IMG/VR virus record: IMGVR_UViG_3300002220_006617
Location: 32,001 to 96,000 of that record
DNA length: 64,000 bases
Reading direction: 5' to 3' (one strand)
DNA from: a virus
Lineage: Duplodnaviria; Caudoviricetes
The notes below the pieces were generated by a model. It was not told the origin of the DNA. It did no database searches and saw only the letters and a list, made by a program, of their open reading frames with translations. Each line of letters starts with the position of its first letter. Position 1 is the first letter of the stretch. Below are positions 3,039 through 54,390 of the stretch, piece after piece. The position numbers and the translations under genes were made by a program.

Positions 3039-3713
3039 ATGATGCAAACCACATACACAACTAACAGCACAGATGACATCACAACTGCAATCACAACCTA
3101 TTTTGAGAACAGAAAATACACGGCAATAAAGCAATCATCTATCATTGCAACAATCGAATCAATGACCGGATACGCCCGTGAAACCATCCGGAAAGTCCTC
3201 ATCGAAATGTCAATAGGAGGAGTCCTGACACGGGAATTGGTAAACTTCAATGCATATACCACACGTTCAGAAGTATTTTACAGAATGAAAACAACCCCCG
3301 CAAGAAAGATTGCCGTAAACATAACTACGGAAAAACAGAACCGGGAGATGAATGATGGGCGAGCAGAATATCATACAAAAACCCGGAGAATGCTCAGTAC
3401 AAATACGACATTCATCGACTTCCTCCAGGAGTACCGGATAACATTCCCCGGATCATCAAGAACAAGAAAATCACTGGCTAAACTGTGGAAGAACACAAAA
3501 ATCAGAACAAAACAGCACAAAATAAAAACAATTACAGTCCCAGTAGCCAAAAAAACCCCCGAAGTATCAGCACCAGCCGGAAAAACACCCAAGGCAGACC
3601 CCTCAACATTCGAGTCCCTCCTGATGACGATTGTAAACCAGAACGCTACCATCATCAACGAACTGTACTCAAAAAAATATCCGGCATCAACGATAGTTCC
3701 CCTGGCCGTATAA
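3039..3713 (+). CDS. Putative DNA-binding protein, paralogue of 5958-6611
   Basis: wHTH-like N-terminus; YRxxFPxSxRT..W motif shared with 5958-6611. Confidence 0.5.
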   Translation: MMQTTYTTNSTDDITTAITTYFENRKYTAIKQSSIIATIESMTGYARETIRKVLIEMSIGGVLTRELVNFNAYTTRSEVFYRMKTTPARKIAVNITTEKQNREMNDGRAEYHTKTRRMLSTNTTFIDFLQEYRITFPGSSRTRKSLAKLWKNTKIRTKQHKIKTITVPVAKKTPEVSAPAGKTPKADPSTFESLLMTIVNQNATIINELYSKKYPASTIVPLAV

Positions 3714-3728
3714 AAAAAGTGATCTGCC

Positions 3729-3995
3729 ATGTTATCCGAAGACCTCAAAAAACAAATCCGTACCGTCAACACAGCCACAGACGTCCATGAACTCTGGGAC
3801 CTCTTGCGGGAAGTCCAGGACCGGGTACATCGTACAGAATGCATGACCTACTATTCAGGTGACAAGGTCATCTTCAACAACCGCGGCATAAAATCAACCG
3901 GCACGGTCACCAAAGTCAACCAGAAAACCATCAGTATCACACTCGACAACGGGGCCCGTTGGAAAGTCACTCCGTCATCCCTGGCAAAGGCATAA
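3729..3995 (+). CDS. Small KOW/SH3-like protein
   Basis: GDKVIF...TGTVTKVNQKTISI...WKV pattern. Confidence 0.5.
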   Translation: MLSEDLKKQIRTVNTATDVHELWDLLREVQDRVHRTECMTYYSGDKVIFNNRGIKSTGTVTKVNQKTISITLDNGARWKVTPSSLAKA

Positions 3996-3997
3996 CC

Positions 3998-5429
3998 ATG
4001 AACGACGATTGCGTATGTAGTGCCTGTTACCGGGACGAATGTGAAACCCGGGACGCCAACGTAAACGTAGTAGCCTGCAGCGATCAGATCAAAAAAGATG
4101 ATCTTCTCACTGAAAAACAGATCACGGACCTGGTTGAAGCCATCATTGAAAACAGTTGCAATGACTGTAAACAATACTCGATCCCATTGAGTCAATCAGA
4201 TTGCCACTGTGACTTTGTTGCTGACACTATCGTTGATGCAACCCACAACAACAAAGAAGAACTGCGGGCCTGTGCCATCTGGGAACACTACCAGGACCTC
4301 CACATGAAATCATTGAACCTCAGCAACAACAACTGCCCGGTATGCCACGCCAAAGATTGCATGGACGGCAAAGAAGTTGTAATCGCAGATAACAAAGCTT
4401 TCCAGGATTGCTCCTGCACAGAATGCGGTAAAAGTTTCCAGCACGAATATACCCTAACGGCTGTCCGGGAATACATATAACTCATTTTTTAGGTGAACTT
4501 TCATGATTGAAATAGACAACGTCATTGCTATCCGCACCGAACATAAGTCAATCATCAATAGAATTGACTCCAGTCGGAAAGAGTCAGTAGAATTACTGAA
4601 AGAACAAGAGGCGAAGTACCGTGACGAAGAGTACCGGTTCGAAGGACTCAAACGAAAAACAGAAAGTCAACGAGCTGATCTCAATACTGCAACCGATAAA
4701 GAGATCACCAGCCACCGGATAACCATACGGGATATCGAATTGAAGTATCTCCGGCAGCTGGCATTCAGCAACATCCGGAACCACTACCCCCATGAATTCG
4801 AAATGGACTCCCGCGACGCTGAATCCCGCGGAATTGTTGAAGAACAGGTTATCTGGACACACCCCCTGGTTGCCATCATTGCCCGGTACGTCAGTAATAC
4901 CGGAAGGTACAATTCAAAACCAGTCAATAAAATTGACTATTCCGTAAAAGTCTACTTTCATAAGGATATGAACCAATGGCTTCGTGACATTGAAGGACAT
5001 TACACGGCCTGGGATACCCGGTACTTAATCGAGAAATCATTCCCAACTGTTGAGGCTGCCAAGAAATATCACGAACGAAACTCGGCCAAATACATCGAAC
5101 CTGCGATTGCCAACCTCACGGCATTCACCCAGGAGATCGATAATACAACATCGAATTTCGAACATCTCTTTGATTTCCGGTACCTCACCGAACCTTACCT
5201 CAACCGCCATCACAGCGGCGATAACTCATTCAAGATCCTCAAAACCGAGAAGTCAATACTGACTCTGGACGATGGGATCACAATTACTCTTGAAGGCAAC
5301 AGGTTCATCATTGCAGGGCCGCCATCACTCGACATCAACCCACGAGCCAGCGAAGGTTGGGATTATTCCCCCCGGGCCCAGATCCTTGGAGCTATTGAAA
5401 CAGAATTCAATCTCCATAAAATCAACTAA
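3998..5429 (+). other. Cys-rich Zn-ribbon protein (3998-4480) and coiled-coil hypothetical protein (4503-5429)
   Basis: Several CxxC pairs; long ORFs. Confidence 0.55.
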
Positions 5430-21001: not shown

Positions 21002-22258
21002 GTGGTTATTATCACAGACGACGAAAACACTGCATTTGGCCTCGATCACAGAGGGATAATCAAAGATGGATATCCTTTAACATCTTTCTATCGGCCGACA
21101 AACATCCTGGCAAGAGACACTGAAAAACTCGAGATCGGCAAACTGTTTGCCCCGGTCCTGAAATACAACGGGAGTCCGATCAACGCATTGGTTTACGGTA
21201 AATCCGGAACAGGCAAAAACCTGGTTGTTGAATACATAACGGATCTTTTCATCCAGAGTGCTGAAAAACGAGGGAAAAAATACATCAGCATCGTTGTCAG
21301 CTGCAAGATGAGAACACCGAAATGGATACTCCAGCAGTTACTATCGGCTGTCGACCCGAGCCTTTCGGATTATGGTACAGGTAGATCTGTCGGAGAAGTT
21401 TACACCAAACTCCACCAGAACATGAAACGAAAGAACGCATCACTCGTTGTCATCCTGGACGAAATTGATGCATTACCGCCTTCAGACCTCCTCTACGATC
21501 TCAGCCGCATTAAAAAAGATCTACCGCAGGACCTCTATCTGGTCATCATCGGGCTGACCAACAACTTCAACGAACACATCAAAGACATTGCCATTTCATC
21601 CTCATTTGGAAGACGAACCATAGACTTCCCCTCGTATACCACAGAAAACCTCAGAGACATCCTCAACGACCGGCTGTTTGCATTATACCCGGACACCCTC
21701 GAAACCGGCGTCATAGAATACATCGCAAAGAAATCAGCAATCGAACACGGCAATGCACGAAAAGCCATTGAACTTCTCGCAACCTCCGCAGAATTCGCTG
21801 AGAATGAAAAAGACCCTCAGATCACATCTATCCACGTCAACCGGGCATCCGACTACATTGAAATCGACAACCTGATAAAAGACCTGATACAATCGCCAAA
21901 ACACACGGTCCTGGCATTCATTGCGATAGCAGAGCTTCAACATAAACTCGGAGGATCTGCAGTCTTATCCTCGCCACTGTACAAACACTACTGCATAGTC
22001 TGTGACGAAAACCTCTTAACGCCACTATCCAGCACACGGTTTGCAACCATCTGCAGCAGCCTTGGATCCACCGGGTTAATAGATGTCACCGAACGAGTAG
22101 GGAGTCACCAGAAAGGCCGTACCCGAGTCCACAAGATCACCCTGACCGAAAACCGGCTTCACCAAATCATGGCGGTCCTCGCCAAAGAACACGGCTACAT
22201 CATCAACGGTCTTTCAACTCAAAAACTTTTATCCCTCCCAGATTTCAATGAGAAATGA
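21002..22258 (+). CDS. cdc6: Orc1/Cdc6 replication initiator
   Basis: Walker A YGKSGTGK, Walker B VILDEID, FPSYT..LRDIL..R, GNARKAIELL, C-terminal wHTH. Confidence 0.92.
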   Translation: MVIITDDENTAFGLDHRGIIKDGYPLTSFYRPTNILARDTEKLEIGKLFAPVLKYNGSPINALVYGKSGTGKNLVVEYITDLFIQSAEKRGKKYISIVVSCKMRTPKWILQQLLSAVDPSLSDYGTGRSVGEVYTKLHQNMKRKNASLVVILDEIDALPPSDLLYDLSRIKKDLPQDLYLVIIGLTNNFNEHIKDIAISSSFGRRTIDFPSYTTENLRDILNDRLFALYPDTLETGVIEYIAKKSAIEHGNARKAIELLATSAEFAENEKDPQITSIHVNRASDYIEIDNLIKDLIQSPKHTVLAFIAIAELQHKLGGSAVLSSPLYKHYCIVCDENLLTPLSSTRFATICSSLGSTGLIDVTERVGSHQKGRTRVHKITLTENRLHQIMAVLAKEHGYIINGLSTQKLLSLPDFNEK

Positions 22259-22298: not shown

Positions 22299-22424
22299 CT
22301 ATTGGCGACAACTATATATACCCGAACAAAACGGAGCCTTTAAACCCGAGATTTCCAATTCAAGTCATTTATTTATATACAACCTCTCTTTTCTTTTCCT
22401 CATACCAATAAATACCAGCACTCG

Positions 22425-22530
22425 GCCGCACGGCTGATGCCGCGGCGTCCCATCATCTCAGTTACCGGATAACGTAGTTCCCATTCGTAACCCGTGCCGC
22501 TTGATAGCGTCAGGGTTATCGATGGGAACT
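22425..22530 (+). repeat. Tandem TGAT-loop hairpins H3a and H3b
   Basis: CGGC-TGAT-GCCG (loop 22435); AGTTCCCAT..TAACCC..CGCT-TGAT-AGCG..GGGTTA..ATGGGAACT (loop 22502). Confidence 0.75.
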
Positions 22531-22603
22531 CCACCCCCTGTGATCCGATTTTTATGTACAAACTGATCCGATCCGTACCTTTCCGCACTACGCATTCTGT
22601 GGA

Positions 22604-22617
22604 AAAATTACCAAAAG
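22604..22617 (+). promoter_or_regulatory. Class I motif AAAATTACCAAAAG
   Basis: Exact 14-mer upstream of ORF 22655. Confidence 0.7.
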
Positions 22618-22654
22618 GTACTCTCGGAAAAAATCTTTACGGAGTTGTATACTG

Positions 22655-23146
22655 ATGACATCTACTATTCTTGGGATCACGGGCCGCATCGAGGCTCGCC
22701 ACTTTATGAAACTCGACCAAATTTGTGAACAACAGGCAAACAAACACCTGCCGGTTAAGTTAGTCAAAATCGACCCTCGGTGTGAGAAAGCAATGGAATG
22801 GGCCCTCATCCGCGGCATGGCCATTGTCATCGAGAAACTGAACTTCACCTACGAGAGAAACTCCATCGACGAGTTCACCAAACTGGTAGTCGGTGAACCC
22901 ACAACCCCCGAGGACTACGCAACCCCAGGCGTTGAAATGGACATCTGCAACCTCACAGACTGCAACATGCCGATCACCCATTCACGAGTTGCACTCGAAG
23001 GCACAGACGGACTCCCGCTGGTCGGCGACCTCTTACCCGACCGGGAATACGGGCGCTGGGTAGGTCCAGACGTCAACATGATCGTCGCAACAGGCGAAGT
23101 CAACGTCCCCAGAATTGAAGGCATCCCCGTAATCAGGGCGTGGTAA
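22655..23146 (+). CDS. Hypothetical protein
   Basis: ORF with GGAG upstream, downstream of class I motif. Confidence 0.6.
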   Translation: MTSTILGITGRIEARHFMKLDQICEQQANKHLPVKLVKIDPRCEKAMEWALIRGMAIVIEKLNFTYERNSIDEFTKLVVGEPTTPEDYATPGVEMDICNLTDCNMPITHSRVALEGTDGLPLVGDLLPDREYGRWVGPDVNMIVATGEVNVPRIEGIPVIRAW

Positions 23147-34987: not shown

Positions 34988-37492
34988 CCTCTAATCCCTG
35001 TTATCCCGTAACAGAACTGGAACTACGCCAGATTCAGAACGACTGCAAATATCCACATACCATCAACTGTGACGGCTGCGATTGTTTTGACAAAGACGTA
35101 TTCTGCACATTCAGCGCAAACATCCTGATAGACGACATAAAAAAACGGTTCATCGAACCTGCGCCGACAGCGAAACCCCAGCAGAATGAACCATCTGGAA
35201 ATTCCAGACAGTTGGAAGAGATCGTAGGAGAAATACACGGCCTGACGTTTTTGGCAGCAACACAGACCGGAAACGAGCATGCAGTCAAGGCATGTAATCT
35301 ATCAGCCGATTTACTCCGGCAGCAAAAGGCGCGGCGATGAATGAATACGACTTATCATGCTCAGTAAGTCACCATTTCAATAGGCAACCGATAGAAATTG
35401 ACGAAGCGGCGTATGAAGAACAAGAAAAACAAAGGCTGTTAACATTCACTAAATACGAGCGTTCTCTGTGGTGCTGGATATGCGGATTTACCCTTGACCC
35501 GTGTGATTTTCCAACCCCAAAGGAAGGAGTGGCTGCATTTGAATCACATTTAAAAGAATGTGAGGCTGGTTGGAGAAACGAAGGAGATGCCCCATGACCG
35601 CAGAGCAGCCGGAACAACAGACGGCTATCCAAACATGTGACAACATCCTCGAAGAACTCCACGACATTCTGAAAGAACATGGAGAATCGGAAGATTATCG
35701 CCTTGTCGAAGCAATAGCAGATTTGCACGAACGGGTCACACTATGGAAAAAACGCCAAGATATCCGTTCCCGCCCTGCCAGCCACAACAACGCAGCATTG
35801 GCAAGGGAACTATCTGCAAAACCGTGCATTGGGAAGTATGAACTCTGCCCATGTGAAGATGAATGTAATATGCCATTGACTTGCAAATCGGTTTCTGATA
35901 TGGTGCAAGAGAATAGAAAGGGAGCCGCCAAGCAGGAGTGGGAGCGTGTGCTGAATGAACTATAGGAATTTGGGCAAGAGATGGAGTGCTTGAACGAAGC
36001 GTGTTGCCGGTCGGCATTTCGGGATAAGATAGCATCCCTCCGGCAGCAGGAGGCGCAGCAATGACTCAAGAATGCCCATGCACCACCTGCACCAAACCAA
36101 CCTGCCCCACTCCCTGCGAAATCTACGACGGCTGGTGGTATAGCCATCATTCCACGGAGAAACCATGCGAGTAGACTACCGGGCACGAATCAAAGAACTG
36201 GTTGAAAAACAGACCGAACAGTTCCTGACTAACGCTCCTGAAAAAGACAAGATCAAAACCCTGATCAAACTCCAGGAACTCCAAAGAAAACGAGCTGAAT
36301 CCGGATGTGACTATTAATGGGATGTTGCGACTACTGTGCACTCGGCCTAGTAAACTTCTGCAACCTCTGTGACACCATAGAGGGCAGACAGTTACATTGG
36401 GACTACGTCCATCTCTGGCATCTCGAAGGCCTGTTCCCCTGCGATTACAACAGTCCCACCACAGAATGGATTGATAAATCACAAGACTGGCTCGATCAGA
36501 TGAACCAACAGACACACCAGACCGTGCAGATCAGGATACGACCATGAAATGCTCACAATGCACTGAACAAAACCGGTCCGGCTGCTGCAGGGATCCCAAA
36601 ACCTGCATCTTCAAACCGGAACTCGAAGAAAAGGACGTGAAAAAAGATGACAATTAAACCCCAGAAAGTCCCTGAACGATGCCAGTATTGCTGTGCCCTG
36701 ACCCAGTATACCCCGGAAGATTTCGAAGACGAGATCTGCACAAAAGACAAAATCAACCAGTACTACTGCGATTGCGGGCGCGACGCAGACGGATACGAAT
36801 ACCAGGGCGAAGACATGTCCAATCTTGAAGAAATCATCCGGAACTGCGGTACATCAGACCTGGCCCAGATCACTGTATCTCATGGAGCAACCATGTATAC
36901 GGTCCATACCCTGGCAACCACCGCTAACGCCCAGTTAACAACCCTAGGATCAGCAACTGTATCAGAACCCGGAAAACTCGTCGATCTTCTCAAAGAAATC
37001 TGCGGAGCCAACTTCGATCTGGAAATCATCGAAGTGATATGATTGGCCGCCCCGTATGAAATCACCAAAGATGACGGCGGGTATATGCTCCAGAACAACA
37101 CCGGCCAGCGAATCCTGTTCCACATGGACCGGGAAACCCTGTTCAGTTTCTTCAAAGAACTCCGGACAGGCCTGACCAAACCGGAGATCATTGCCATCTG
37201 CGACACCCTCGATCGGCCCGGCCTGACGAAAACCAACAAAGCATGGTATGCCACACCATGACCCGAACCCCGTCAATTCTGCTTGCCCTCAGACTCATGG
37301 CAATCATGGAAGAAGATCCCGATTTCTACTGGCTGTTCGAACGGTCAGCAGAATGGTATCAGATCCATTACCAGCGTCCTGTTGAGACGATCGGCGAATA
37401 ATCCCGTTTTCAAGAACATCACTGTCAATTCCACCGCGGTATCCCAAAAACGAAACCAAACGCAGGTTATCTCCCAACGAGTGTCTCTCGAA

Positions 37493-37506
37493 AAAATTAC
37501 CAAAAG
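37493..37506 (+). promoter_or_regulatory. Class I motif AAAATTACCAAAAG
   Basis: ATG 10 nt downstream (37517). Confidence 0.75.
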
Positions 37507-37516
37507 GTACTAGTGA

Positions 37517-43683: not shown

Positions 43684-45495
43684 TCCCACTCAAGAACTCA
43701 TGAAAGCATGCAAGATCTATCAGTCATGCCTGAACGAAGTCAACCGGAACCGGCTGGCTGCAGGAGATCCGCCAGTTGCATATCTCAACCCGATAGCCTG
43801 CAACTGCTGTATTGACCGGGACCACACGCTCGACGAAGTCAAAGAACGATTGGCCAACAGGAAAATCAAAAGTACCTGTAAATGTCTTAATGACGACATC
43901 CCGCTCTGTCCCTACTGTGAACACAATGCAAGTCCGGGAGATACCTGCCCGGACGGATACCACGAAATCTGCAACGGCAATCCCGGTCACAAATGTCACA
44001 ACTGCAAAGGCGACGATGCGCCGTTCGCAACATCATGCACCCACTGCGTATCAAAATGTACCCGAGGATAGACCATGCCAGAATTCAGAATTTTGTTCAT
44101 TGACCCCCGCGGGGTCAACATCGAAGCGCCAACCGAACGAGAAGCAGTAGCGATCGTCATGGATCGGGAATGGGAACACGGAATGGACTGGAGTGACGGC
44201 AAAATCGAGATCATGTCAGTCGAGGAGATCTGATGATCCTCAACAAACGGGACCTCATCCACAAACTCGACGGGTTAACCGTCAGACTTCGCTGTCAGGC
44301 CGGGGCATTCATTGCAATCGAAGGCGTCCCGGACTTCAACGCTGCTGACATCCGGCTCAACCGTCTCGGCAAATGCCTTGAAATGTCGAACTACCTTATC
44401 CTCATGGGAACTGACGGTCAGGAGATGACAGAAACCACAAAAGCCCATTACGACGAGTTCATCCGATATCTCAACGAATGTCATCAGGCATTTGAAATAG
44501 GAAAGAAACCAGCATGATCAACTACTTCACCAAATCCGAAGCCCAGGCAAAGGTCGGTAAACGGGTCAAAACCAAAATTGAATTCTACCAGTTACCGGCC
44601 GGCACTACCGGGAAAGTCACCGGAATCTACAGTGGCTGGCGCAATGAAAGTGGAGTTGACATCACCTGGAACCGTAATCCACCCATCACTGACGGCTTCT
44701 CCAAAGACGAATACGAAGAGTTCATCGAGGAACTGTCATGACCCCGGAAGAAGCCAAGAAAGTAGCGGCACTCATCTGGTATGCATCTCACGACAATGCA
44801 GACGCTCCAGTTGACTCAATGCTCGATGCAGTAGCGATCCTGCCTGAACTCAAACCTTACGCCATTCTCCTCGCAAAGAAAGAATGGGACGTAAACCTCG
44901 AAATCCCTGAAGGTAATCAACCCGATCCTGAACTCACAGGACTCATTGAAGATTTATTCGAATGGACCGCCTGAGCCGCAGGCTCTAAAGAATAAAGGGG
45001 GCCCTCAAAGCCCCCGACAAGGTCCAGAATCGAGCCGTGTCTTTCATAATAAACAATAGAATACACATCTACATGATAGGTTCACATCCTACAGTAGACA
45101 TCCTAATGGGGCTGCCGCCCCCTTCAACCCCTGCTTCTCATCAATATCATCCTACCAACAACAAACCAAATCCCACATCACCGCCTGAGACACCGAATAT
45201 ATATAAATGCCCTTATACTACTACAAACTTTCGCAGAAATACCAAATCTCAACAATACACCGATAATTCACAGTCCAATCAGTAAAAACACCGCAAATTT
45301 GAGCCGGCACAAGCGGTTGGCTCTGCGGAATAGGGGCGGGCGGGTTCGCAAGGTAAGGCGGAGACCGTTACAGTTTGGGCGATACCCTGTCATCCAGAGC
45401 ACGGGCGGGCTCCGATCTACAGTTTGCCGGAGCATTATTGGCGGGATTCGCAATCGGGCTCTATTTTACAGTTTCCGGCAGGGACCTGGCAAAAC

Positions 45496-45819
45496 TGTTA
45501 CAATCAGACTGTTTCCGGGGCAGGGCCCTTTCACATGTTACCGTCTGAGGTTACAGTTTGTTACCGTCTGGCACCGTCTGTAACAAAAGAATGTTACAGT
45601 TTGTTACAGTCAGACTGTTACAGTTTGTTACAGTCAGGTGTAACCGTCGACACAGGCGGTAACAGTTGCGGGTGTAACCGTCGGAAGTGTAACAGGTGTA
45701 ACCGTCGACACTGACGGTAACAGGAGAATGTTACCGTCTGACACCGTCTGTAACATTCAGGTGTAACATTTTGTTACAGTGACTTTCGTTTAAGTGTAAC
45801 AGTGTAACATTTTGTTACA
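45496..45819. repeat. Array of about 22 GTWAC sites (iteron/operator-like)
   Basis: TGTTAC/TGTAAC/GGTAAC recurring mostly every 8-23 bp, ending at the ATG of 45819. Confidence 0.85.
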
Positions 45820-46148
45820 TGACAAAAAGCAACGTCAAACGAATCACAGAAGACTCAGAAGCAATTGCACTCAGTTACGGCCCGACAATCTCAGATGGCA
45901 TCATTGCTATGGCAAATCTTATCGGAAAACCAACCCCGGCACCAACAGTTTCCGCGATACCGTCACAACAGACAGTTTCTGGCGGGGACCTGGAAACCAT
46001 CATCAGAAAGATAGTCCAGGAAGAGGGCGTCACCTTATCGCCGAAAGCAATTGAGACGGGCATCATGCTCAGCAAGAAACAACGTGGGTTCTTCCAGAAC
46101 CTCAATAATGCATTGATCATGGCCATGAGCCGTGAAAACAAAATCTGA
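45819..46148 (+). CDS. Putative ribbon-helix-helix-like DNA-binding protein
   Basis: NVKRITEDSEAIALSYGPTISDGIIAM beta-alpha-alpha pattern; late-type promoter at 45779. Confidence 0.5.
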   Translation: MTKSNVKRITEDSEAIALSYGPTISDGIIAMANLIGKPTPAPTVSAIPSQQTVSGGDLETIIRKIVQEEGVTLSPKAIETGIMLSKKQRGFFQNLNNALIMAMSRENKI

Positions 46149-46379
46149 TTTTTTCAAGAATATATCCAATAAAACCCGGGCCGCGAAAGACCGGGCGATT
46201 ATCAAGAAGATCAGTCAAGCCGGCGAGTAAGTGTCACGGGTGACGATCAACGCTTTCAAGAATAGTCTCGCCTCAACCACAGTTTCCGGCTGCAGGAACC
46301 GACGGCCGGTTGGAGTGGGGATGCTCATCGCCATGGTTAAATACCCGATTACGCCAGCACCCAGACGGACAGACCCGAC

Positions 46380-46393
46380 AAAATTACCAAAAG
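46380..46393 (+). promoter_or_regulatory. Class I motif AAAATTACCAAAAG
   Basis: ATG 10 nt downstream (46404). Confidence 0.75.
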
Positions 46394-46403
46394 CGACGAG
46401 TGT

Positions 46404-46616
46404 ATGGTATCAGAGCGTGTTGTTGTCCATGAAGATGGCTCGTTTGTGCGTGTGATCGATGAAGTTGCCTGGGTGGCTGGCAGATTGCGGTTTATATCCA
46501 CTGTGTATCACTATGATTATCCGGAGCTCCTGTTCTCGCATGAATACTACCGCGCCGGCGTGGTTCCCGAGGTTGTTCTGGTGGGGGTCAAGTACGATCC
46601 TCCCCTCAGCTCCTGA
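46404..46616 (+). CDS. Small protein, paralogue of 49931-50113
   Basis: Shared VIDE(V/L)A...Y...VP motif. Confidence 0.55.
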   Translation: MVSERVVVHEDGSFVRVIDEVAWVAGRLRFISTVYHYDYPELLFSHEYYRAGVVPEVVLVGVKYDPPLSS

Positions 46617-46654
46617 TTTATCCGGACTGTACGGACTAACGAGTGTCTCTCGAA

Positions 46655-46668
46655 AAAATTACCAAAAG
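46655..46668 (+). promoter_or_regulatory. Class I motif AAAATTACCAAAAG
   Basis: AACGAGTGTCTCTCGAAAAAATTACCAAAAGGTACT identical to the 37.5-kb copy; ATG 10 nt downstream. Confidence 0.75.
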
Positions 46669-46724
46669 GTACTTTCGAATGAGATCACGGTTTCGTCACA
46701 TGATCTTGTTCAGGAAGTATTGAT

Positions 46725-47189
46725 ATGGAAACCACAGAACTCAACACCGGATCCGAATCGCAGATGACCTTACCCGAAACCACCAACCCGCCCGCAGCAG
46801 CACCGGCGCTCAAGAACTCCCGTTGTGGCTTCATCTTCAAGAGCCAGTTCACGGACCCGACCAAGGCATTCGTTATCAAGGCTGACGGCGTCCCCGACAT
46901 GTACATCAACGCAAATGGCGTGGTCTGGGCAAACGTGTTCAGCATCCCTGTCATCGATGGGAAACTCGCTGACGTTGGTCGTTCAGAGCCAACCCCGTTC
47001 GACACCCTGCACTCCTCAAAGTCGGGAGAGACCGTGACCTTCAGGGCACTCGGGAACAACTACATGATCAAGAAGGACAAATACAATCTGGTCAACGCGG
47101 GCCTTGAGCGCAATGCAATGGTCACCCGCCTGCCGATTGAGACCAAGACCCAGCGGGACGTTCGGCTGGCCAAGGAATCAGCAGCCTGA
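46725..47189 (+). CDS. Small beta-rich protein, paralogue of 8434 and 23140
   Basis: CGFIFKSQF..AF and SKSGETVTFRALGNNYMI. Confidence 0.6.
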   Translation: METTELNTGSESQMTLPETTNPPAAAPALKNSRCGFIFKSQFTDPTKAFVIKADGVPDMYINANGVVWANVFSIPVIDGKLADVGRSEPTPFDTLHSSKSGETVTFRALGNNYMIKKDKYNLVNAGLERNAMVTRLPIETKTQRDVRLAKESAA

Positions 47190-47311
47190 CCAATCCGCAC
47201 CCTTTTTGCACGTCTCTCACACCTGTATGTCACCACACATTGATCCGTTCCCATCATGGAAATTGGGGGGCGGATCCTTCTTTTTTGTACTGCCATGACA
47301 GCGGGGCCCGA

Positions 47312-47454
47312 TCCCCCGGCGCGCCTGGTCCTGATGAACCAGCCACTCTGGGGGACGACCCCCTATGGTCCGGTTGGGGATAGTCGGGCCCTGCGTCCTG
47401 ACAGTCGCAGACCCCTGGGCGGCGCTGATGCGCCGCTGTCAAGAACAACCCGTA
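47312..47454 (+). repeat. Structured block A, copy 1 (TGAT/TGAC hairpins)
   Basis: 47373-47454 matches 49223-49304 with about 4 mismatches; GCGGCGC-TGAT-GCGCCGC. Confidence 0.85.
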
Positions 47455-47841
47455 GTGATAGCCCAGACACATTCAATAAGAAGAATAAAACACTGACCCT
47501 GAAAACAATTATATACACCAACCGGTGGGAGAAGGTCATACCCTTAAATAAGAGAAACGATGTATTTATATCCTGACACCGTCAATAATAGTATGTCTGC
47601 AAGGCTTTGTCACCTTGCGGCGCGATAGATCTATTCTCAATATAGTTCTGTCGTCTGTGATTCATTCCGTTGCTGGAATAGCCAAGGACAACGGGCCGGC
47701 CACACAAACCTTTCGTTGCTGAAAAGGGGTCGGTCCGGAACTCCCTGAGCTGGTTTACTGTTACTTTCCTGGAGTGTCAACCTTCGTGCGATCGGAGGTC
47801 TGTTCTGTTCTTGGGGGCCGTCGCCCCCGCCACGAGGGCAT

Positions 47842-47926
47842 CCCCAGACGCCTTGCACCACGGGCTTCGCCACGAGCAAGTCTTTACAAGATGATGGAGG
47901 GCTGCCCGCCCCCCAAACCCCCTGGC
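47842..47926 (+). repeat. Structured block B, copy 1
   Basis: CCCCAGACGCCTTGCACCA...AGCAAGTCTTTACAAGAT.ATGGAGGGCT shared with 49545-49632. Confidence 0.8.
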
Positions 47927-47983
47927 CAAGGGGATCCCCCCTGGACCCCCGGGGCTGGCCGCAGGCCCACGAGTGCATTTGGA

Positions 47984-47997
47984 AAAATTACCAAAAG
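47984..47997 (+). promoter_or_regulatory. Class I motif AAAATTACCAAAAG
   Basis: ATG 10 nt downstream (48008). Confidence 0.75.
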
Positions 47998-48007
47998 CAA
48001 CGAGCGT

Positions 48008-48151
48008 ATGACGTCCTTTACAGGTGTTACGCAGCAGGTATTGACCTCAGACCACATGATGCAGCAGTTCCAGCAGATCTTCTCGTTCGATCTTCTGTTC
48101 GGGCTCAACCAGTTCGTTAGTTCAATCATCATGGTCTGCGGGTGGTTCTGA
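48008..48151 (+). CDS. 47-aa hydrophobic peptide, copy 1
   Basis: MTSFTGV...MMQQFQQIF..DLL...; no Lys/Arg; starts at the motif-defined ATG. Confidence 0.6.
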   Translation: MTSFTGVTQQVLTSDHMMQQFQQIFSFDLLFGLNQFVSSIIMVCGWF

Positions 48152-49068
48152 TGGAGATCGGATTCTCCCAGAACCTCGATTACGATCGGGCGGTTATCCG
48201 CAAGCATGTGGGGCCCGCTACGGTTCACGGCAAATCGGTCAGCAGGGACAACAACCCCCGCCACGACCTTTTCGTCTGCACAGATTGTGGCGATGTGAAA
48301 TGTGATTCATGTCCGATTGACTGGGACAAGGTTACTCGGCAGCAGCGGGGGGTCTAATCATGATCACTCCCGTCCGTTGTCCCAACTGTGGCAAACATTA
48401 CATCCCCGACCTCGGTGAACGCAAACGGTACGACATGAACATCCAGCAGGAGTTCCCGAACGCGACCAGCATCCAGCGGGAACAACTCATGACAGGTCTC
48501 TGCAGTGACCAGTGCTGGCAGGAATTCCTCGGACCTGAGCCTGAGGAGGATTTCTGTGAAGGATGCACTGCAGACTGCACCTTCTGCCCGCAGGCTGACG
48601 GGGAGAGTGCAGAATGATCATTGACGGGGACCAGCCTGTCAATAAGATCCTCGACCGGGCCAGCGAACCCCTTCCTGCCAAACCGTCAGGTGACGTGGTG
48701 GTTGGCTCATGATCGACTTCCAAGTCCCCTCCCATCTGGGGGGCCGGTTCACCAACATTTCCCACGTCAGAATGCGGAGTTGCCAGACAGTCTGTTACGG
48801 TGACCCGTGTGACGGGGTGTGGAGTGGTGTTCCCGATGCCATCAGGCATCCAACGTTCACTCCCCGCCAAACGTTCCTCGCACTGCAGTCGATCTATGAA
48901 TCACAACATCAGGACATCATAGCATTCGATATCTACGATGCCATGGAGCTCGAGTGCTGTGATCACTGTCCAATAGCAGCAGACTGCTCAACACGACCGC
49001 GGGTGGATGGCGACATCGACTGCATCACCGTGCAGGACTGGGCTTACAGTCTGTTCAGGACGAATTAA
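48151..49068 (+). other. Three small Cys-rich (Zn-binding) CDSs (48151-48357, 48360-48617, 48709-49068)
   Basis: CxxC clusters. Confidence 0.55.
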
Positions 49069-49102
49069 TCACCTTTTTTTTATGTACGCTGGCGCTGTGC
49101 AC

Positions 49103-49304
49103 TGGGGCTGGCCCTGATGGTCCCACCCCACGGGGTTATACGAGATGTCAACCCCCCAACCCCCCTCTCCAGGGGGGCTAGGCCATACGGTCCTGGACGG
49201 ACCGATGGCCAAATGGTGTATTGTTGGGGGTAGTCGGGCCCTGCGTCCTGACGGCCGCAGACCCCTGGGCGGCGCTGATGCGCCGCTGTCAAGAACAAAC
49301 CGTA
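49103..49304 (+). repeat. Structured block A, copy 2
   Basis: TGAT loops at 49115 and 49276, TGAC loop at 49249. Confidence 0.85.
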
Positions 49305-49544
49305 ACGGTAACCTGCCCCTGTCAAGAACAAACGGCAATTGTCAATAATAAACTTCAATTGTTCTCCGGACCCGAAGGGTCTAAAAAGGGATCAAGAATA
49401 CCTGGGGATCGCATAAAGAACAAACTTAGTTGCTATATAGAGCATATCATCATCCTCACCCCCATCCTCCCGGCACCCGGTTGTCAATCATAGAAGCACA
49501 CATCTTTCCTTGGGGCCACGCCCCTGGCCCCAGCGAAGCGCCAA

Positions 49545-49632
49545 CCCCAGACGCCTTGCACCAGGGGGGCCCCACTGCCCCTCCAGCAAGTCTTTACAAG
49601 ATTATGGAGGGCTCCGCCCCCAAACCGCCTGG
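49545..49632 (+). repeat. Structured block B, copy 2
   Basis: Homologous to 47842-47926 with a different internal stem-loop. Confidence 0.8.
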
Positions 49633-49643
49633 AGCGCAGTGGC

Positions 49644-49657
49644 AAAATTACCAAAAG
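49644..49657 (+). promoter_or_regulatory. Class I motif AAAATTACCAAAAG
   Basis: ATG 10 nt downstream (49668). Confidence 0.75.
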
Positions 49658-49667
49658 CCATGAGCGC

Positions 49668-49811
49668 ATGACTACTACAGGCATAGCAACAGAATCGGTA
49701 TCGCAGATGTGGATGCAGTATACACAGATGTTCAATGGCACAGTCATTGACCTCACCTGGCTCTCACCCCTCACGGACTCACTCGTCGGGCTGCTGGGCA
49801 TGGTGCTCTGA
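49668..49811 (+). CDS. 47-aa hydrophobic peptide, copy 2 (not in ORF track)
   Basis: MTTTGIATESVSQMWMQYTQMFNGTVIDLTWLSPLTDSLVGLLGMVL. Confidence 0.6.
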   Translation: MTTTGIATESVSQMWMQYTQMFNGTVIDLTWLSPLTDSLVGLLGMVL

Positions 49812-49906
49812 CCCTTTTTTGCTGTACGGTTGATACGCAGGCATACCTTGGGCATACACCCTGCGAACTACGCAGACTGATGCCCTATTGCGAGTGTGCT
49901 TGGTTG

Positions 49907-49920
49907 AAAATTACCAAAAG
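49907..49920 (+). promoter_or_regulatory. Class I motif AAAATTACCAAAAG
   Basis: ATG 10 nt downstream (49931). Confidence 0.75.
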
Positions 49921-49930
49921 CCTCGAGCGT

Positions 49931-50113
49931 ATGGAAGCAGAAAGCTACTTGGTTGAATATGGCGGGGCTCCCCGCTGTGTGATTGATGAACTCGCTTGCT
50001 ATGAGACCGAAGTGTTCTACGAGGGGACTTACGTCCCCGGGATGAAGTCGGTTCGGCTCGAACTCGACGTCCTGAGTGGACTGGTGGGGATAGTGGTGGA
50101 GGAGGTCTGTTGA
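49931..50113 (+). CDS. Small acidic protein, paralogue of 46404
   Basis: VIDELA motif. Confidence 0.55.
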   Translation: MEAESYLVEYGGAPRCVIDELACYETEVFYEGTYVPGMKSVRLELDVLSGLVGIVVEEVC

Positions 50114-50258
50114 CCTCCCTATCCTTCCTGATCAGCCCGATTTCCATCGCTGTACTCTTGGTCCTAGATCTTTAACCAATTAGGCTTGCACGTTTCCCCG
50201 GTTCACCAAAGTTGCAGGTGACATTCCCTAAAATACAGTCCCGGAAAAATTTTAGGCC

Positions 50259-50690
50259 ATGGAGTTGACCTGCGAAGGCCGGTGCAGGGCCGGAGAATGC
50301 ATGCCGGGGGCCTGCTGCAAGATGAACCCATTCCACAAGGATTTCTGGGATCGCATGAAAGCACGGGCTTTACGGACGCCCATAGAGGTCAAACCCCTCC
50401 CTGACGACCAGGTCCTTGTCATTACGGGAAACCGATACTGCTGTTTCCTGACCGCGGGGAAACGATGCGTCATCTGGGACGACAGGCCGACGGTCTGCAG
50501 GGTCTGGGGCCCGCATGACGCAGGACCGTGCAGGTATCCGGATGATAAGAAAGGGCCGGTCAAGGAACGGAACGCCATGATCAGCGGATACATCCGGGCA
50601 GATTCACTCGGACAATTCACCAATCGGACGACGATACGGGCAAAGGAGAATCCCCGGGAGACCGGCCCAGAAGACGGTTCGCGCAAATAG
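50259..50690 (+). CDS. YkgJ-like Zn/Fe-chelating Cys-cluster protein
   Basis: GACC...CCFL....CVIWDDRPTVCR. Confidence 0.75.
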   Translation: MELTCEGRCRAGECMPGACCKMNPFHKDFWDRMKARALRTPIEVKPLPDDQVLVITGNRYCCFLTAGKRCVIWDDRPTVCRVWGPHDAGPCRYPDDKKGPVKERNAMISGYIRADSLGQFTNRTTIRAKENPRETGPEDGSRK

Positions 50691-51701: not shown

Positions 51702-51719
51702 GTGACCTTTGTTAATATA
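51702..51719 (+). promoter_or_regulatory. Late-type promoter (TGAC plus TATA); other copies at 5444, 25898, 27324, 45779, 50218, 52599, 57449, 59739, 61053
   Basis: TGAC 39-42 nt upstream of ATG, followed by an AT-rich TATA-like box. Confidence 0.7.
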
Positions 51720-51742
51720 CTTTTGCCAGCAACGAACCGGGC

Positions 51743-53044
51743 ATGGTAACGAGAATTATCGACCTTAACGCCACGTCGTTACAGTCTATGACGGTTCCAT
51801 CCCCTGTCAACCTCGCTACTGGAGAACTTGCAGATCTGAAATCCGCCAAGACCGGGTTATGCCGGCGTGTCCTGGCAGTTTCGGAAGGGATTCACAACGG
51901 CATTGAATTCACGACTGCAGAGATCCAGGGCATGGTGACGGATACCGAGGAACGGAAACAGGCTGATAACGGTGAATATTATCAGGTACCGATCATTCTC
52001 GACCACTCGAACAAATTCCTTGACAAGATCGGCGGCACACTGGCCGTCCAGTTCTCAACCGACGCCAAAGCCGCGATCAGCGACATCCGGTTCTGGGAAA
52101 ACACTGACATGGAAAAAGAGGTCTGTGCCAAGATCCGCGAGGATCCGACCAACGTCTTCTTCTCGGTCCGTGTGCGTGGGGAACTGGTTGAACCGTCAAT
52201 GGCAGCAATGAAACTCGGGGCCTGGGCCAAGATCGTCAATATGCGATGGATGCACCTTGCCCTGGTCAACGAACCTGCCGACGAGAACGCCCGCATCCTT
52301 GAGGAACTTGCATCGACGGTCGGGAAACTGGACCTCGGAGAAACCACCATGCCAACTGAAAATCTCGGAACAGTTACTGCTCCAATACCGGCGGTAGCAT
52401 CAGCACTGAACCTGACCTCAGCAACCGTCACTGACGTTACAACCGGCACGGCAACCACGAACACTGTCACCAACTTCGGCATCACTGACAACAGTGGGTA
52501 TGCCCCCCCGGCCACATATGAACCGGTAATCATCACCGTACCAGGCACAGGCACAGACAAGACGTTCGATTACCGTTTGGTACCAGTGACGCCTGAAAGT
52601 GACATTCACTTAAATAAAGATATCGCAAACGAAACTCGCATGGCTTCAGATGAATCCAGCAAACAGATCGCTGATCTCACTGCTGATCTCAAGAAAGAGA
52701 AAGACGCAAACGTTGTTCTCCAGACTGAGCTCGCAGCTGCGAAGGCTCTGGCTGCAGATCTGACCGTCAAGCTCGAGAAGTCCAACAAGGACCTCGCCGA
52801 ACTGGACGCAAAGATTCCGCTGGTTACAGAGATTCTGGCGATTAACGGTGCTGTCAAGAAAGAGTTCCTTTACAGCCTCACCAAGGAACAGCTCGTCGAG
52901 TTCAAGGGTGTTGTTGCACCGGCCGTCCCTGACGTGCCCGTCTCGTCCCAGAAATCTGTGGACCAGTCAGCACCCGCTACCCCGGTCGTAACCGAGAAGT
53001 CTGCCCTGCAGCTTTCCCGTGAAGCGTTCGGCAAAATTGAGTGA
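51743..53044 (+). CDS. Prohead protease-scaffold fusion
   Basis: G.HNG..FT, VPIILDH, FSV, HLALVNEPAD; C-terminal coiled coil; first gene of head module. Confidence 0.75.
   Translation: MVTRIIDLNATSLQSMTVPSPVNLATGELADLKSAKTGLCRRVLAVSEGIHNGIEFTTAEIQGMVTDTEERKQADNGEYYQVPIILDHSNKFLDKIGGTLAVQFSTDAKAAISDIRFWENTDMEKEVCAKIREDPTNVFFSVRVRGELVEPSMAAMKLGAWAKIVNMRWMHLALVNEPADENARILEELASTVGKLDLGETTMPTENLGTVTAPIPAVASALNLTSATVTDVTTGTATTNTVTNFGITDNSGYAPPATYEPVIITVPGTGTDKTFDYRLVPVTPESDIHLNKDIANETRMASDESSKQIADLTADLKKEKDANVVLQTELAAAKALAADLTVKLEKSNKDLAELDAKIPLVTEILAINGAVKKEFLYSLTKEQLVEFKGVVAPAVPDVPVSSQKSVDQSAPATPVVTEKSALQLSREAFGKIE
52640..53044 (+). CDS. Nested in-frame scaffolding protein
   Basis: In-frame ATG 40 nt after internal GTGACATTCACTTAAATA; coiled-coil product. 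Confidence 0.6.
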   Translation: MASDESSKQIADLTADLKKEKDANVVLQTELAAAKALAADLTVKLEKSNKDLAELDAKIPLVTEILAINGAVKKEFLYSLTKEQLVEFKGVVAPAVPDVPVSSQKSVDQSAPATPVVTEKSALQLSREAFGKIE

Positions 53045-53499: not shown

Positions 53500-54390
53500 A
53501 TGACAAACATTGACGCAACTGACAAAGTCCCCAGCAAGGATTTCAACTATACCGACTGCCCGGCCCTTCACCCTGATGTGATCGTGGCCCGTGTCAAGGA
53601 AGTATACAACAAGGTCCTGATCGGGCGCTCGCTCATTGGTGTCGAGTCAATTCCCTCCGATTCCGTTTCCTACCTCGTGGAAGGAGATATGACCGGGGCA
53701 GTTGACTGGATCACCGAGGAAGGTGGATTCCCGAAGGTTGACTTCAACTACACCAAACGCGCGAAAGTCGTGCGGCCCTATGGTGTCCAGTTCGATATCA
53801 CCATGATGGAACGCAAATGGTCCAGGATCACAACTGTCGGCCGCAAGCTGACCCGCACGATCCGGTCCATGCGCCGGTTTGAAGACGACATGATCTTCTA
53901 CGATCTCATCAACAACACCGACAAGGCAACCTTTGACGGCAGCAACTGGGGCACCACAACCGGTAGCGACCCGATTGCAGATGTCGAGAAGGCAAAGCGC
54001 CTCGTCCGTGACGGCACGGAAGGTATCGAGCCGGATCTCATCATCATGAACTCCCAGATGTTCGAGAACCTCACGAAGTTCGACATGATCCGGAACCAGC
54101 TCTACAACAACACCATGTATGTGCAGACTGGCAAGATCGGCAAACTCTGCGGTCTTGACGTCGTGGTCAACAACCAGATCGACCCGACCGGCACCAACTA
54201 CCGGGCACTCGTCATGAAGAAAGGCGAAGCCGGTTACATGGCCGAGGCAATCCCGATGACCAACCCGAGCATCGACGGTCTCAGTCTGAGCAACCCGCTC
54301 CTCGACCGCAGGTACTTCCTCTACGCGATGGCAGAGCCTGTAATCGACAACGGCGAAACAATGTGCCTGATCACCGGCCTCAACGCCTGA
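53500..54390 (+). CDS. Major capsid protein (HK97 fold)
   Basis: EGGFP, YG..F.IT, PDLIIMN, GKIGKLCGLDVVVNN; position in module. Confidence 0.85.
   Translation: MTNIDATDKVPSKDFNYTDCPALHPDVIVARVKEVYNKVLIGRSLIGVESIPSDSVSYLVEGDMTGAVDWITEEGGFPKVDFNYTKRAKVVRPYGVQFDITMMERKWSRITTVGRKLTRTIRSMRRFEDDMIFYDLINNTDKATFDGSNWGTTTGSDPIADVEKAKRLVRDGTEGIEPDLIIMNSQMFENLTKFDMIRNQLYNNTMYVQTGKIGKLCGLDVVVNNQIDPTGTNYRALVMKKGEAGYMAEAIPMTNPSIDGLSLSNPLLDRRYFLYAMAEPVIDNGETMCLITGLNA

Follow-up and report, generated by a model that had tools for sequence, protein, structure and literature searches.

A candidate structured leader RNA in a duplicated regulatory cassette of an archaeal tailed virus and in plasmid-like elements

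The DNA analyzed here is a window of 64,000 nt, bases 32001-96000 of the 127.7-kb IMG/VR virus record IMGVR_UViG_3300002220_006617, and the subject is a pair of modules at 47190-48151 and 49069-49811, in which pairwise alignment and repeat finding revealed an identical order of parts. Both are regulatory cassettes, paralogous and for the most part non-coding. The component that is new and has the best support is an element of ~115-125 nt, the leader, which the comparison of its copies describes as a folded RNA of the + strand belonging to an uncatalogued family; it lies ahead of a small open reading frame (ORF) and is carried also by otherwise unrelated plasmid-like elements. We assign a probability of about 0.5 to the reading that the leader controls in cis the small ORF behind it. 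To our knowledge, regulatory RNAs of archaeal viruses are almost unknown and the viruses of methanogens have barely been studied; the leader would be a concrete candidate for a cis-regulatory RNA in methanogen mobile elements.

As we propose it, each cassette would begin with an oligo-T terminator and a TGAT-loop hairpin, followed by a conserved block A, an AT-rich stretch with boxes resembling the B recognition element (BRE) and TATA, the leader with a block B in it, a motif termed class I, and a 47-codon ORF. The initial annotation of this DNA had described a duplicated module with such ordered parts, including an 82-nt block A with ~95% identity, a block B conserved around a variable inner stem-loop, GNA mini-hairpins and two Lys/Arg-free peptides of exactly 47 residues, and all of these were recovered in place or nearly so. 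It had also held the non-coding blocks to be far better conserved than the peptides, in agreement with the 83-95% identity of the former versus 27% for the latter. Block B is made of sub-blocks of 26 nt (92% identity) and 47 nt (83%) on either side of the variable hairpin. The mini-hairpin sequence GCGAAGC lies at 49533 and its reverse complement at 47864; in module 2 it is one variant of a small conserved hairpin that occurs also in L081, one of the plasmid-like elements. The leader and its parts are located as follows.

47787-47900, + strand: leader copy 1, containing block B (model R3, 108.7 bits)
47839-47911, + strand: block B copy 1
47894, + strand: conserved AUG of module 1, with a sequestering hairpin that extends to ~47918
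49486-49610, + strand: leader copy 2, containing block B and the GCGAAGC mini-hairpin (model R3, 128.3 bits)
49542-49621, + strand: block B copy 2
49603, + strand: conserved AUG of module 2, opening a 19-codon upstream ORF (uORF) that ends at 49663, 4 nt before the AUG of peptide 2

The fold was derived with RNAalifold from an alignment (A9) of four sequences, the two viral modules and the copies of two plasmid-like elements, G252 and L081, that are described below. It comprises 22 pairs in five helices; every cell of the alignment is a standard pair and five pairs show compensatory changes. The covariation score was 0.318 versus 0.185 in shuffles, of which 1 in 500 reached 0.318, and sliding the partners along the alignment made the pairing drop to 38-52%. 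Several pairs of the leader are G.U in some copies and would become A.C on the opposite strand, and for this reason the fold is assigned to the + strand, which is the coding strand; the predicted fold is thus conserved and strand-specific. The single-sequence folding energies of blocks A and B were not clearly better than those of shuffled sequences (z from +0.6 to -2.7), so that the case for the fold is the comparison between copies and not the energy.

The 3′ part of the leader shows a conserved single-stranded UCUUUACAAGAU, then an AUG and then a hairpin predicted to sequester this AUG. In all four copies the last helix is followed by the single-stranded UCUUUACAAG and by AU-N-AUG, with UUACAAG repeated in both plasmid-like copies, and the post-AUG hairpin includes part of the AUG in each of the four, its sequence being wholly different between the virus and the plasmid-like elements. 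In module 1 and G252 the conserved AUG shares the frame of the small ORF downstream; in module 2 and L081 it does not. Because of this variable frame, and because the four copies of block B differ by indels that are not multiples of three, block B and the stretch from there to the small ORF are non-coding. Minus-strand ORFs over block B were considered and rejected, since their frames are not conserved between copies and the differences are non-synonymous.

Within the window, model R3 recognized the two modules, at 128 and 109 bits, and nothing else up to E = 1. Rfam gave no match on the window and only chance-level ones (E 2-4) on 44000-50300. With Rfam, Pfam and PHROGs all without a match, the earlier remark that no known family could be recognized still holds. 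What the copies have in common is the conserved fold with covariation, the same orientation and the position between a promoter region and a small ORF.

Module 1 was searched against 400 genomes of the phylum containing an Archaeoglobales metagenome-assembled genome, and two kinds of match were obtained. The first is a single locus in G252, an mcrA-positive genome of the same family as G317, a carrier of the host repeat introduced below. Stretches of 15 and 22 nt match block B exactly and in its order at this locus, which is 74% identical over 80 nt and scores 82 bits with model R2; it is found after an AT-rich region and before an ORF, in an island with an ArdC-like gene. A gapped block B pattern led to one Joint Genome Institute (JGI) metagenome contig, L081, which is 79% identical to module 2 over 81 nt, including the CCCCAGCGAAGCGCCAACCCCA segment, and 74% identical to the G252 island over ~2.1 kb. 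The order in both is family A DNA polymerase, MarR-type regulator, AT-rich region, leader, an acidic ORF of 33-42 residues, an ORF of 124 residues and ArdC (with an ArdcN and a zincin peptidase domain). Between the virus and these two elements there was no tblastx match and no common protein; the leader is thus also carried by plasmid-like elements that are otherwise unrelated to the virus, and there too it has a promoter region on one side and a small ORF on the other. In G252 and L081 this small ORF encodes an acidic product that is not hydrophobic and has no relationship to the viral peptides. Taken as a whole, the regions G252:C1 ~140.5-143.7 kb (L043/L049) and L081:1-5018 represent a plasmid- or virus-like element, which is integrated in the chromosome of the methanogen G252.

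Neither the leader nor the modules had a match in a phage collection or a plasmid collection, and the leader had none in IMG/VR, where two exact block B patterns were scanned. A block B 17-mer had eight matches there, which were rejected as chance.

The second kind of match relates 47809-47847 to a multi-copy element present in 5-6 copies in each of two mcrA-positive genomes, G197 and G317 (loci L056 and L058-L066, e.g., L061:1492-1648). The folded core of this host repeat, of 154-171 nt, combines a conserved closing stem with a GGGGGC/GCCCCC hairpin, a GCC...GGC hairpin, a long GCGAU...AUCGC hairpin whose tip varies and a GC-rich 3′ domain of two subtypes, and strand-specific U.G pairs are numerous in it; GCTCTGTAGAAATC-type inverted ends flank some of the copies, and Rfam had no match on the host repeat loci. 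Model R1, built from 10 copies of the core in the two genomes, found a single match in the whole virus, at 47804-47935 (35.8 bits, E 7e-8), that runs the full length of the model but skips the long central hairpin of the core, the place of which is taken by block B. Module 2 reached 7 bits with this model and was not recognized. Most aligned core copies match the 5′ domain of module 1 (47809-47847) at 84-90% identity, and the identity is 81% in one genome; this domain is common to the virus and the folded core of a multi-copy methanogen repeat. No copy of the GCTCTGTAGAAATC-type terminal inverted repeat was found near the modules, and the window contains four matches with 2-3 mismatches versus 3.9 expected. 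Because of the similarity to the host repeat and of the habitat, methanogenic hydrocarbon cultures, the data point to a Methanoregula-type methanogen as the host, and the repeat thus connects an uncultured virus with its probable hosts at the sequence level.

Modular intergenic repeats with a folded core are known from bacteria, as in the pneumococcal BOX and Neisseria Correia elements. The viral modules resemble the host repeat in their modular make-up, in swapped sub-blocks and in the common 5′ domain of module 1; they differ in that the virus has neither the terminal inverted repeat nor the long central hairpin and that its copies stand at a fixed position before ORFs. Module 1, G252 and the host repeat have the variant GCCRCGAGGGC (GCCRCGAGG(G)CAT in G252 and module 1), and module 2 and L081 have the variant AGCGAAGCGCC. 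From such mosaic matches it follows that the two viral copies are about as distant from each other as each of them is from a foreign copy. A speculative extension, to which we give a low probability, is that the leader is a horizontally mobile RNA switch, with which the virus, the plasmid-like elements and, in the form of a domain, the host repeats would all read one host factor or metabolite and so time small establishment-phase genes. If true, it would be the first such regulatory RNA module common to several classes of archaeal mobile elements.

Whether the leader could act on the ORF behind it depends on the parts between and around them, listed here.

47484-47600, + strand: AT-rich spacer of module 1 (AT-rich part 47484-47590), with BRE/TATA-like boxes at 47507-47515, 47544-47551 and 47563-47571
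47984-47997, + strand: class I motif, 10 nt before the ATG of peptide 1
48008-48151, + strand: peptide 1 ORF, 47 codons, its ATG 10 nt after the class I motif
49344-49441, + strand: AT-rich spacer of module 2, with TATA-like boxes at 49344-49352 and 49434-49441
49644-49657, + strand: class I motif, 10 nt before the ATG of peptide 2
49668-49811, + strand: peptide 2 ORF, 47 codons, its ATG 10 nt after the class I motif

In the cis-control reading the leader would be transcribed from the AT-rich promoter and would act on the translation or the stability of the small-ORF mRNA, and there may be a role for a host factor or signal that these mobile elements share. The two AT-rich spacers are of unequal length and show no alignable similarity. 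A canonical spacing for the virus can be taken from two clear genes, in which a TATA 8-mer is followed by 23 nt and the ATG (51712 to 51743 and 50228 to 50259), suggesting leaderless mRNAs in this virus. The products of these genes are a 433-residue scaffold-like protein and a 143-residue CxxCxxCC protein, and there is no Shine-Dalgarno sequence before them. The box spacing in the module 1 spacer is near the canonical one, the box at 47563-47571 being 21 nt before an ATG at 47593 whose ORF has no more than 11 codons.

The class I motif, AAAATTACCAAAAG, has eight exact copies in the window, all on the + strand, versus 0.8 expected, and no further copy in the rest of the 127.7-kb genome; with its spacing pattern it had no match in IMG/VR. 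Five of the eight lie within 46380-49920, each before a small ORF, with T-tract/TGTAC signals and hairpins between them. The A/T part of the motif is 16 nt before the ATGs, 7 nt short of the canonical TATA spacing. The motif is either an unusual promoter or an mRNA element, and its nature decides whether the leader shares an mRNA with the peptide. A 36-nt stretch at a class I motif (AACGAGTGTCTCTCG-AAAAAATTACCAAAAG-GTACT) is identical at 37478-37513 and 46640-46675, 9 kb apart, where the Logan unitigs branch.

Several observations weigh against cis control. The fold is drawn from no more than four sequences, whose alignment served both to derive the structure and to support it. The family is rare, R2 having matched 1 of 150 family-level genomes and R3 1 of 150 order-level genomes, both times G252, in addition to the one JGI contig. 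In module 1 no TATA box lies at the canonical distance before the 5′ end of the leader. If class I is a promoter, the peptide mRNA starts downstream of the leader, which excludes an action in cis, and the promoter reading is favored by several class I copies that come after a T-tract with no TATA box in between. Finally, the conservation of block A, loops included, looks more like recent gene conversion than like selection for a fold.

These points lead to an alternative that we consider possible, though unlikely, in which the element is the gene of a separate, trans-acting small RNA, for example one that mimics the related host repeat RNA or serves as its decoy, or one that regulates host transcripts, with class I as a virus-specific promoter that drives the peptides independently; the adjacency of leader and peptide would then merely reflect the layout of the cassette. 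The class I copies at 22604 and 49907, which come after T-tract/TGTAC signals without a TATA box between and may be promoters, are consistent with it, as are the absence of Shine-Dalgarno sequences from the class I genes, the resemblance of the module 1 5′ domain to a multi-copy, RNA-like core of the host and a T5 tract between the leader region and the small ORF of G252. No T-tract separates leader and ORF in either viral module or in L081, however, orientation and position relative to the small ORF that follows are constant in all four members, and the A/T part of class I is 7 nt too near the ATG for the canonical TATA spacing, all of which counts against this alternative.

The initial annotation had proposed an RNA-peptide system, and the part of that proposal that stands is that a small peptide gene accompanies a structured non-coding RNA element; the type I toxin-antitoxin and single-stranded DNA (ssDNA) versions found no support. 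The peptides are 27% identical (global z = 3.8, p ~5e-4 in composition-preserving shuffles; local z 2.8), a weak but significant similarity that would make them paralogues. Both are predicted as a single helix (residues 5-46 in peptide 1, pLDDT 72), contain no Lys or Arg and have a moderately hydrophobic C-terminal half (Kyte-Doolittle 1.4-1.8 over 15 residues). No homologue was found among 1.8 billion proteins, where only the virus's own ORFs and two long low-complexity proteins were returned; the ESM Atlas value of 0.76 is at chance level, and Pfam and PHROGs gave no family match. The stop codon of peptide 1 overlaps the next ATG (TGATG), and four small ORFs, three of them Cys-rich, follow up to 49068, making a five-gene run. 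The peptides would be real, fast-evolving accessory products. An 85-residue, N-terminally extended form of peptide 1 was rejected, its frame not being conserved between the copies and the differences being non-synonymous.

A type I toxin-antitoxin-like system, with a 47-residue membrane toxin gated by the leader or uORF in the manner of hok/mok and an antisense RNA, would be suggested by the small single-helix peptides with their hydrophobic C-terminal half, by the conserved AUG sequestered in a hairpin and by the uORF of module 2, which stops 4 nt before the peptide AUG. The leader of hok/mok/sok is a structured 5′ leader that gates a small ORF on plasmids, and the likeness extends to a long folded leader, a start codon in a hairpin, an upstream ORF that adjoins or overlaps the small ORF and mobile carriers; the cassettes differ in that there is no antisense RNA candidate and no sequence relationship, and the downstream ORFs vary with the carrier. 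No minus-strand TATA-like box faces either peptide or the leader, so neither an antisense promoter nor an antisense RNA candidate was found. Moreover, a membrane helix would have no flanking Lys or Arg, peptide 1 heads the five-gene run and is coupled in translation to the four genes after it, the corresponding ORFs of G252 and L081 are acidic and non-hydrophobic, and the peptides are without homologues, which together make this reading very improbable.

Upstream of the leader, each module opens with the following signals.

47203-47290, + strand: end of the upstream unit, with T5 at 47203-47207, a GATCCG/CGGATC hairpin and T6 at 47281-47286 followed by GTAC
47313-47354, + strand: bulged TGAT-loop hairpin of module 1, loop at 47332-47335 (predicted fold)
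within 47313-47363, + strand: GGGGG-ACGA-CCCCC hairpin, overlapping the TGAT-loop hairpin of module 1
47373-47455, + strand: block A copy 1, 95% identical to copy 2
49074-49087, + strand: T-tract/TGTAC of module 2, T8 at 49074-49081 followed by ATGTAC, at the end of the peptide 1 run
49104-49129, + strand: TGAT-loop hairpin of module 2 (predicted fold)
49223-49305, + strand: block A copy 2, with two more TGTCAA(G/T)AA(C/T)AAAC boxes at 49320 and 49340
49815-49827, + strand: T-tract/TGTAC after peptide 2, T6 at 49815-49820 followed by GCTGTAC

Every unit opens after an oligo-T tract and (G/A/C)TGTAC (47281-47290, 49074-49087 and 49815-49827), signals that look like archaeal terminators. The TGAT hairpins of the modules have the same bulged architecture as those at the gene-block junctions 8371, 11409, 22502 and 32416 of the window, and the combination of T-tract/TGTAC and TGAT hairpin is the general gene-block punctuation of the virus. 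A short version of the cassette is seen at 22391-22660, just 3′ of the Orc1/Cdc6 gene (cdc6), with two TGAT-loop hairpins, a T-tract/ATGTAC, a class I motif and an ORF at 22655.

Block A is 95% identical over 82 nt by alignment, with a 43-nt identical core, and has no third copy in the 127.7-kb genome. Two hairpins of the same kind as the junction ones, with a TGAC loop (CTGCG...CGCAG) and a TGAT loop (GGCGGCGC/GCGCCGC), make up the block together with a CTGTCAAGAACAA box. Boxes of the type (C/T)GTCAA occur eight times in the 1.4 kb of the two modules, and the narrower hexamer TGTCAA has 55 + strand copies in the whole 127.7-kb genome; the TGTCAA boxes are direct repeats, all in one orientation. 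In the sole frame open in both copies the three codon differences (D/G, S/G and T/N) are all non-synonymous, and the only ORF of block A would contain the T6 terminator, starting inside it, for which reasons the block is taken as non-coding. ORFs of 106 and 67 residues over block A were rejected accordingly, with frames not conserved between the copies and non-synonymous differences. Block A had no relatives in IMG/VR, in the 400 genomes sampled across the phylum or in 151 genomes of the methanogen family of G317 and G252, where only short chance-level matches were seen, and the exact pattern of its core had no match in IMG/VR. Its borders are sharp and nearly every base is conserved, loops included, which fits either sequence-specific recognition or recent gene conversion; it would be a boundary or regulatory element, its near-identity being kept by selection or by gene conversion. 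Two further candidates were discarded, namely pairing of block A with the 5′ flank of the leader (an 8-nt complement is present in module 1 only) and mimicry of a CRISPR repeat (there is no array and no repeat-spacer structure).

An AT-rich core between GC-rich conserved blocks, in a virus that encodes Orc1/Cdc6, might also be a replication origin, as an unwinding element flanked by protein-binding blocks, or the modules might provide ssDNA hairpins; their location near a change in compositional skew and the GCGAAGC-type mini-hairpins would be in line with this. Against it, blocks A and B are not inverted copies of each other, no inverted repeats resembling origin recognition boxes flank the spacers, the TGTCAA boxes all point in the same direction and cdc6, next to which such origins usually lie, is 25 kb away. 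In the plasmid-like relatives the element heads an operon, and a tailed double-stranded DNA virus has no obvious ssDNA entry stage. As for the earlier idea of ssDNA signals used in injection or priming, the fold is + strand-specific and is placed between promoter-like boxes on one side and ORFs on the other, and GCGAAGC is a variant of a conserved hairpin. We regard an origin or ssDNA role as highly unlikely.

In layout, the closest known analogue appears to be the promoter-early stem-loop (PeSL) cassettes of the hyperplastic regions of T4-type phages (Arbiol et al., 2010; PMC2839356). In both cases a short repeated promoter-type motif and stem-loop or terminator units flank small ORFan genes clustered in the genome of a large tailed virus, here in one region with five class I motifs, and the repeated units offer homology for recombination. 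The cassettes studied here differ in the archaeal host, in their oligo-T terminators, TGAT-loop hairpins and 14-nt non-TATA motif, in the far greater length of the modules (600-800 nt), in the presence of a folded leader common to other mobile elements and in that no recombination products were seen, in contigs only. They may be an archaeal counterpart of the ORFan-shuffling regulatory cassettes of T4-type phages.

This analogy raises the possibility, rather doubtful in our view, that the repeats act mainly as DNA, as mobile cassettes or repeat debris of the PeSL, BOX or MITE type that recombination spreads or homogenises, that shuffle ORFans and that fold without a dedicated RNA function. The sharp borders and near-complete base conservation of block A would agree with it, as would the mosaic relationships among the modules, G252, L081 and the host repeat, the five class I cassettes within 3.6 kb around small ORFans, the dispersed multi-copy nature of the host relative and the T4-type precedent (PMC2839356). 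It is countered by the absence from the virus of the terminal inverted repeat of the host element, and by the compensatory changes and strand-specific G.U pairs, which point to selection for a fold of the + strand. Joints between the repeats, expected from a deletion or a circle, were absent from the contigs of four runs, a weak test since contigs cannot reveal rare products.

An assembly artefact, which the initial annotation had named as a way to refute the duplication, is ruled out, because the same 10.9 kb is 100% identical in independent assemblies of the European Nucleotide Archive and JGI from other samples, with one contig differing by one base. Logan unitigs end exactly at the repeated cores, and parts of this DNA also occur in a second study (2025). 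The virus was identical in every copy recovered.

The wider setting of the modules is given by the following genes.

2.7-6.8 kb of the record: terminase and portal genes
83.8-86.4 kb of the record: scaffold and capsid genes
21002-22258 of the window: Orc1/Cdc6 gene, encoded by the virus
53500-54390 of the window: HK97-type capsid protein (PF25209)

From the HK97-type capsid, terminase, portal and scaffold genes the virus is classified as an archaeal tailed virus; a PAPS-reductase-like and a sheath-like protein are also among its products. The long ORFs of the window are nearly all on the + strand, with strong GC and AT skews. Small ORFan genes and long non-coding DNA make up the 7.7 kb (44.0-51.7 kb of the window) in which both modules are found; this region immediately precedes the head and tail genes, and the strand skews weaken there. 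Relatives of the capsid protein (49-85% identity) lie on contigs that are short or have other genes upstream, none of them with a class I motif or the modules, and the 154-residue protein encoded upstream has no relative in IMG/VR. A 1.7-kb stretch at 44072-45818, at the same weakening of the skews, has short tandem repeats and no convincing ORF, and might serve as an origin or in some other regulatory role. The large terminase, which lies outside the window, is matched as two pieces, G000:C1:2747-2896 and 3275-4555, separated by ~380 nt, which suggests an intron, an intein, a frameshift or an insertion.

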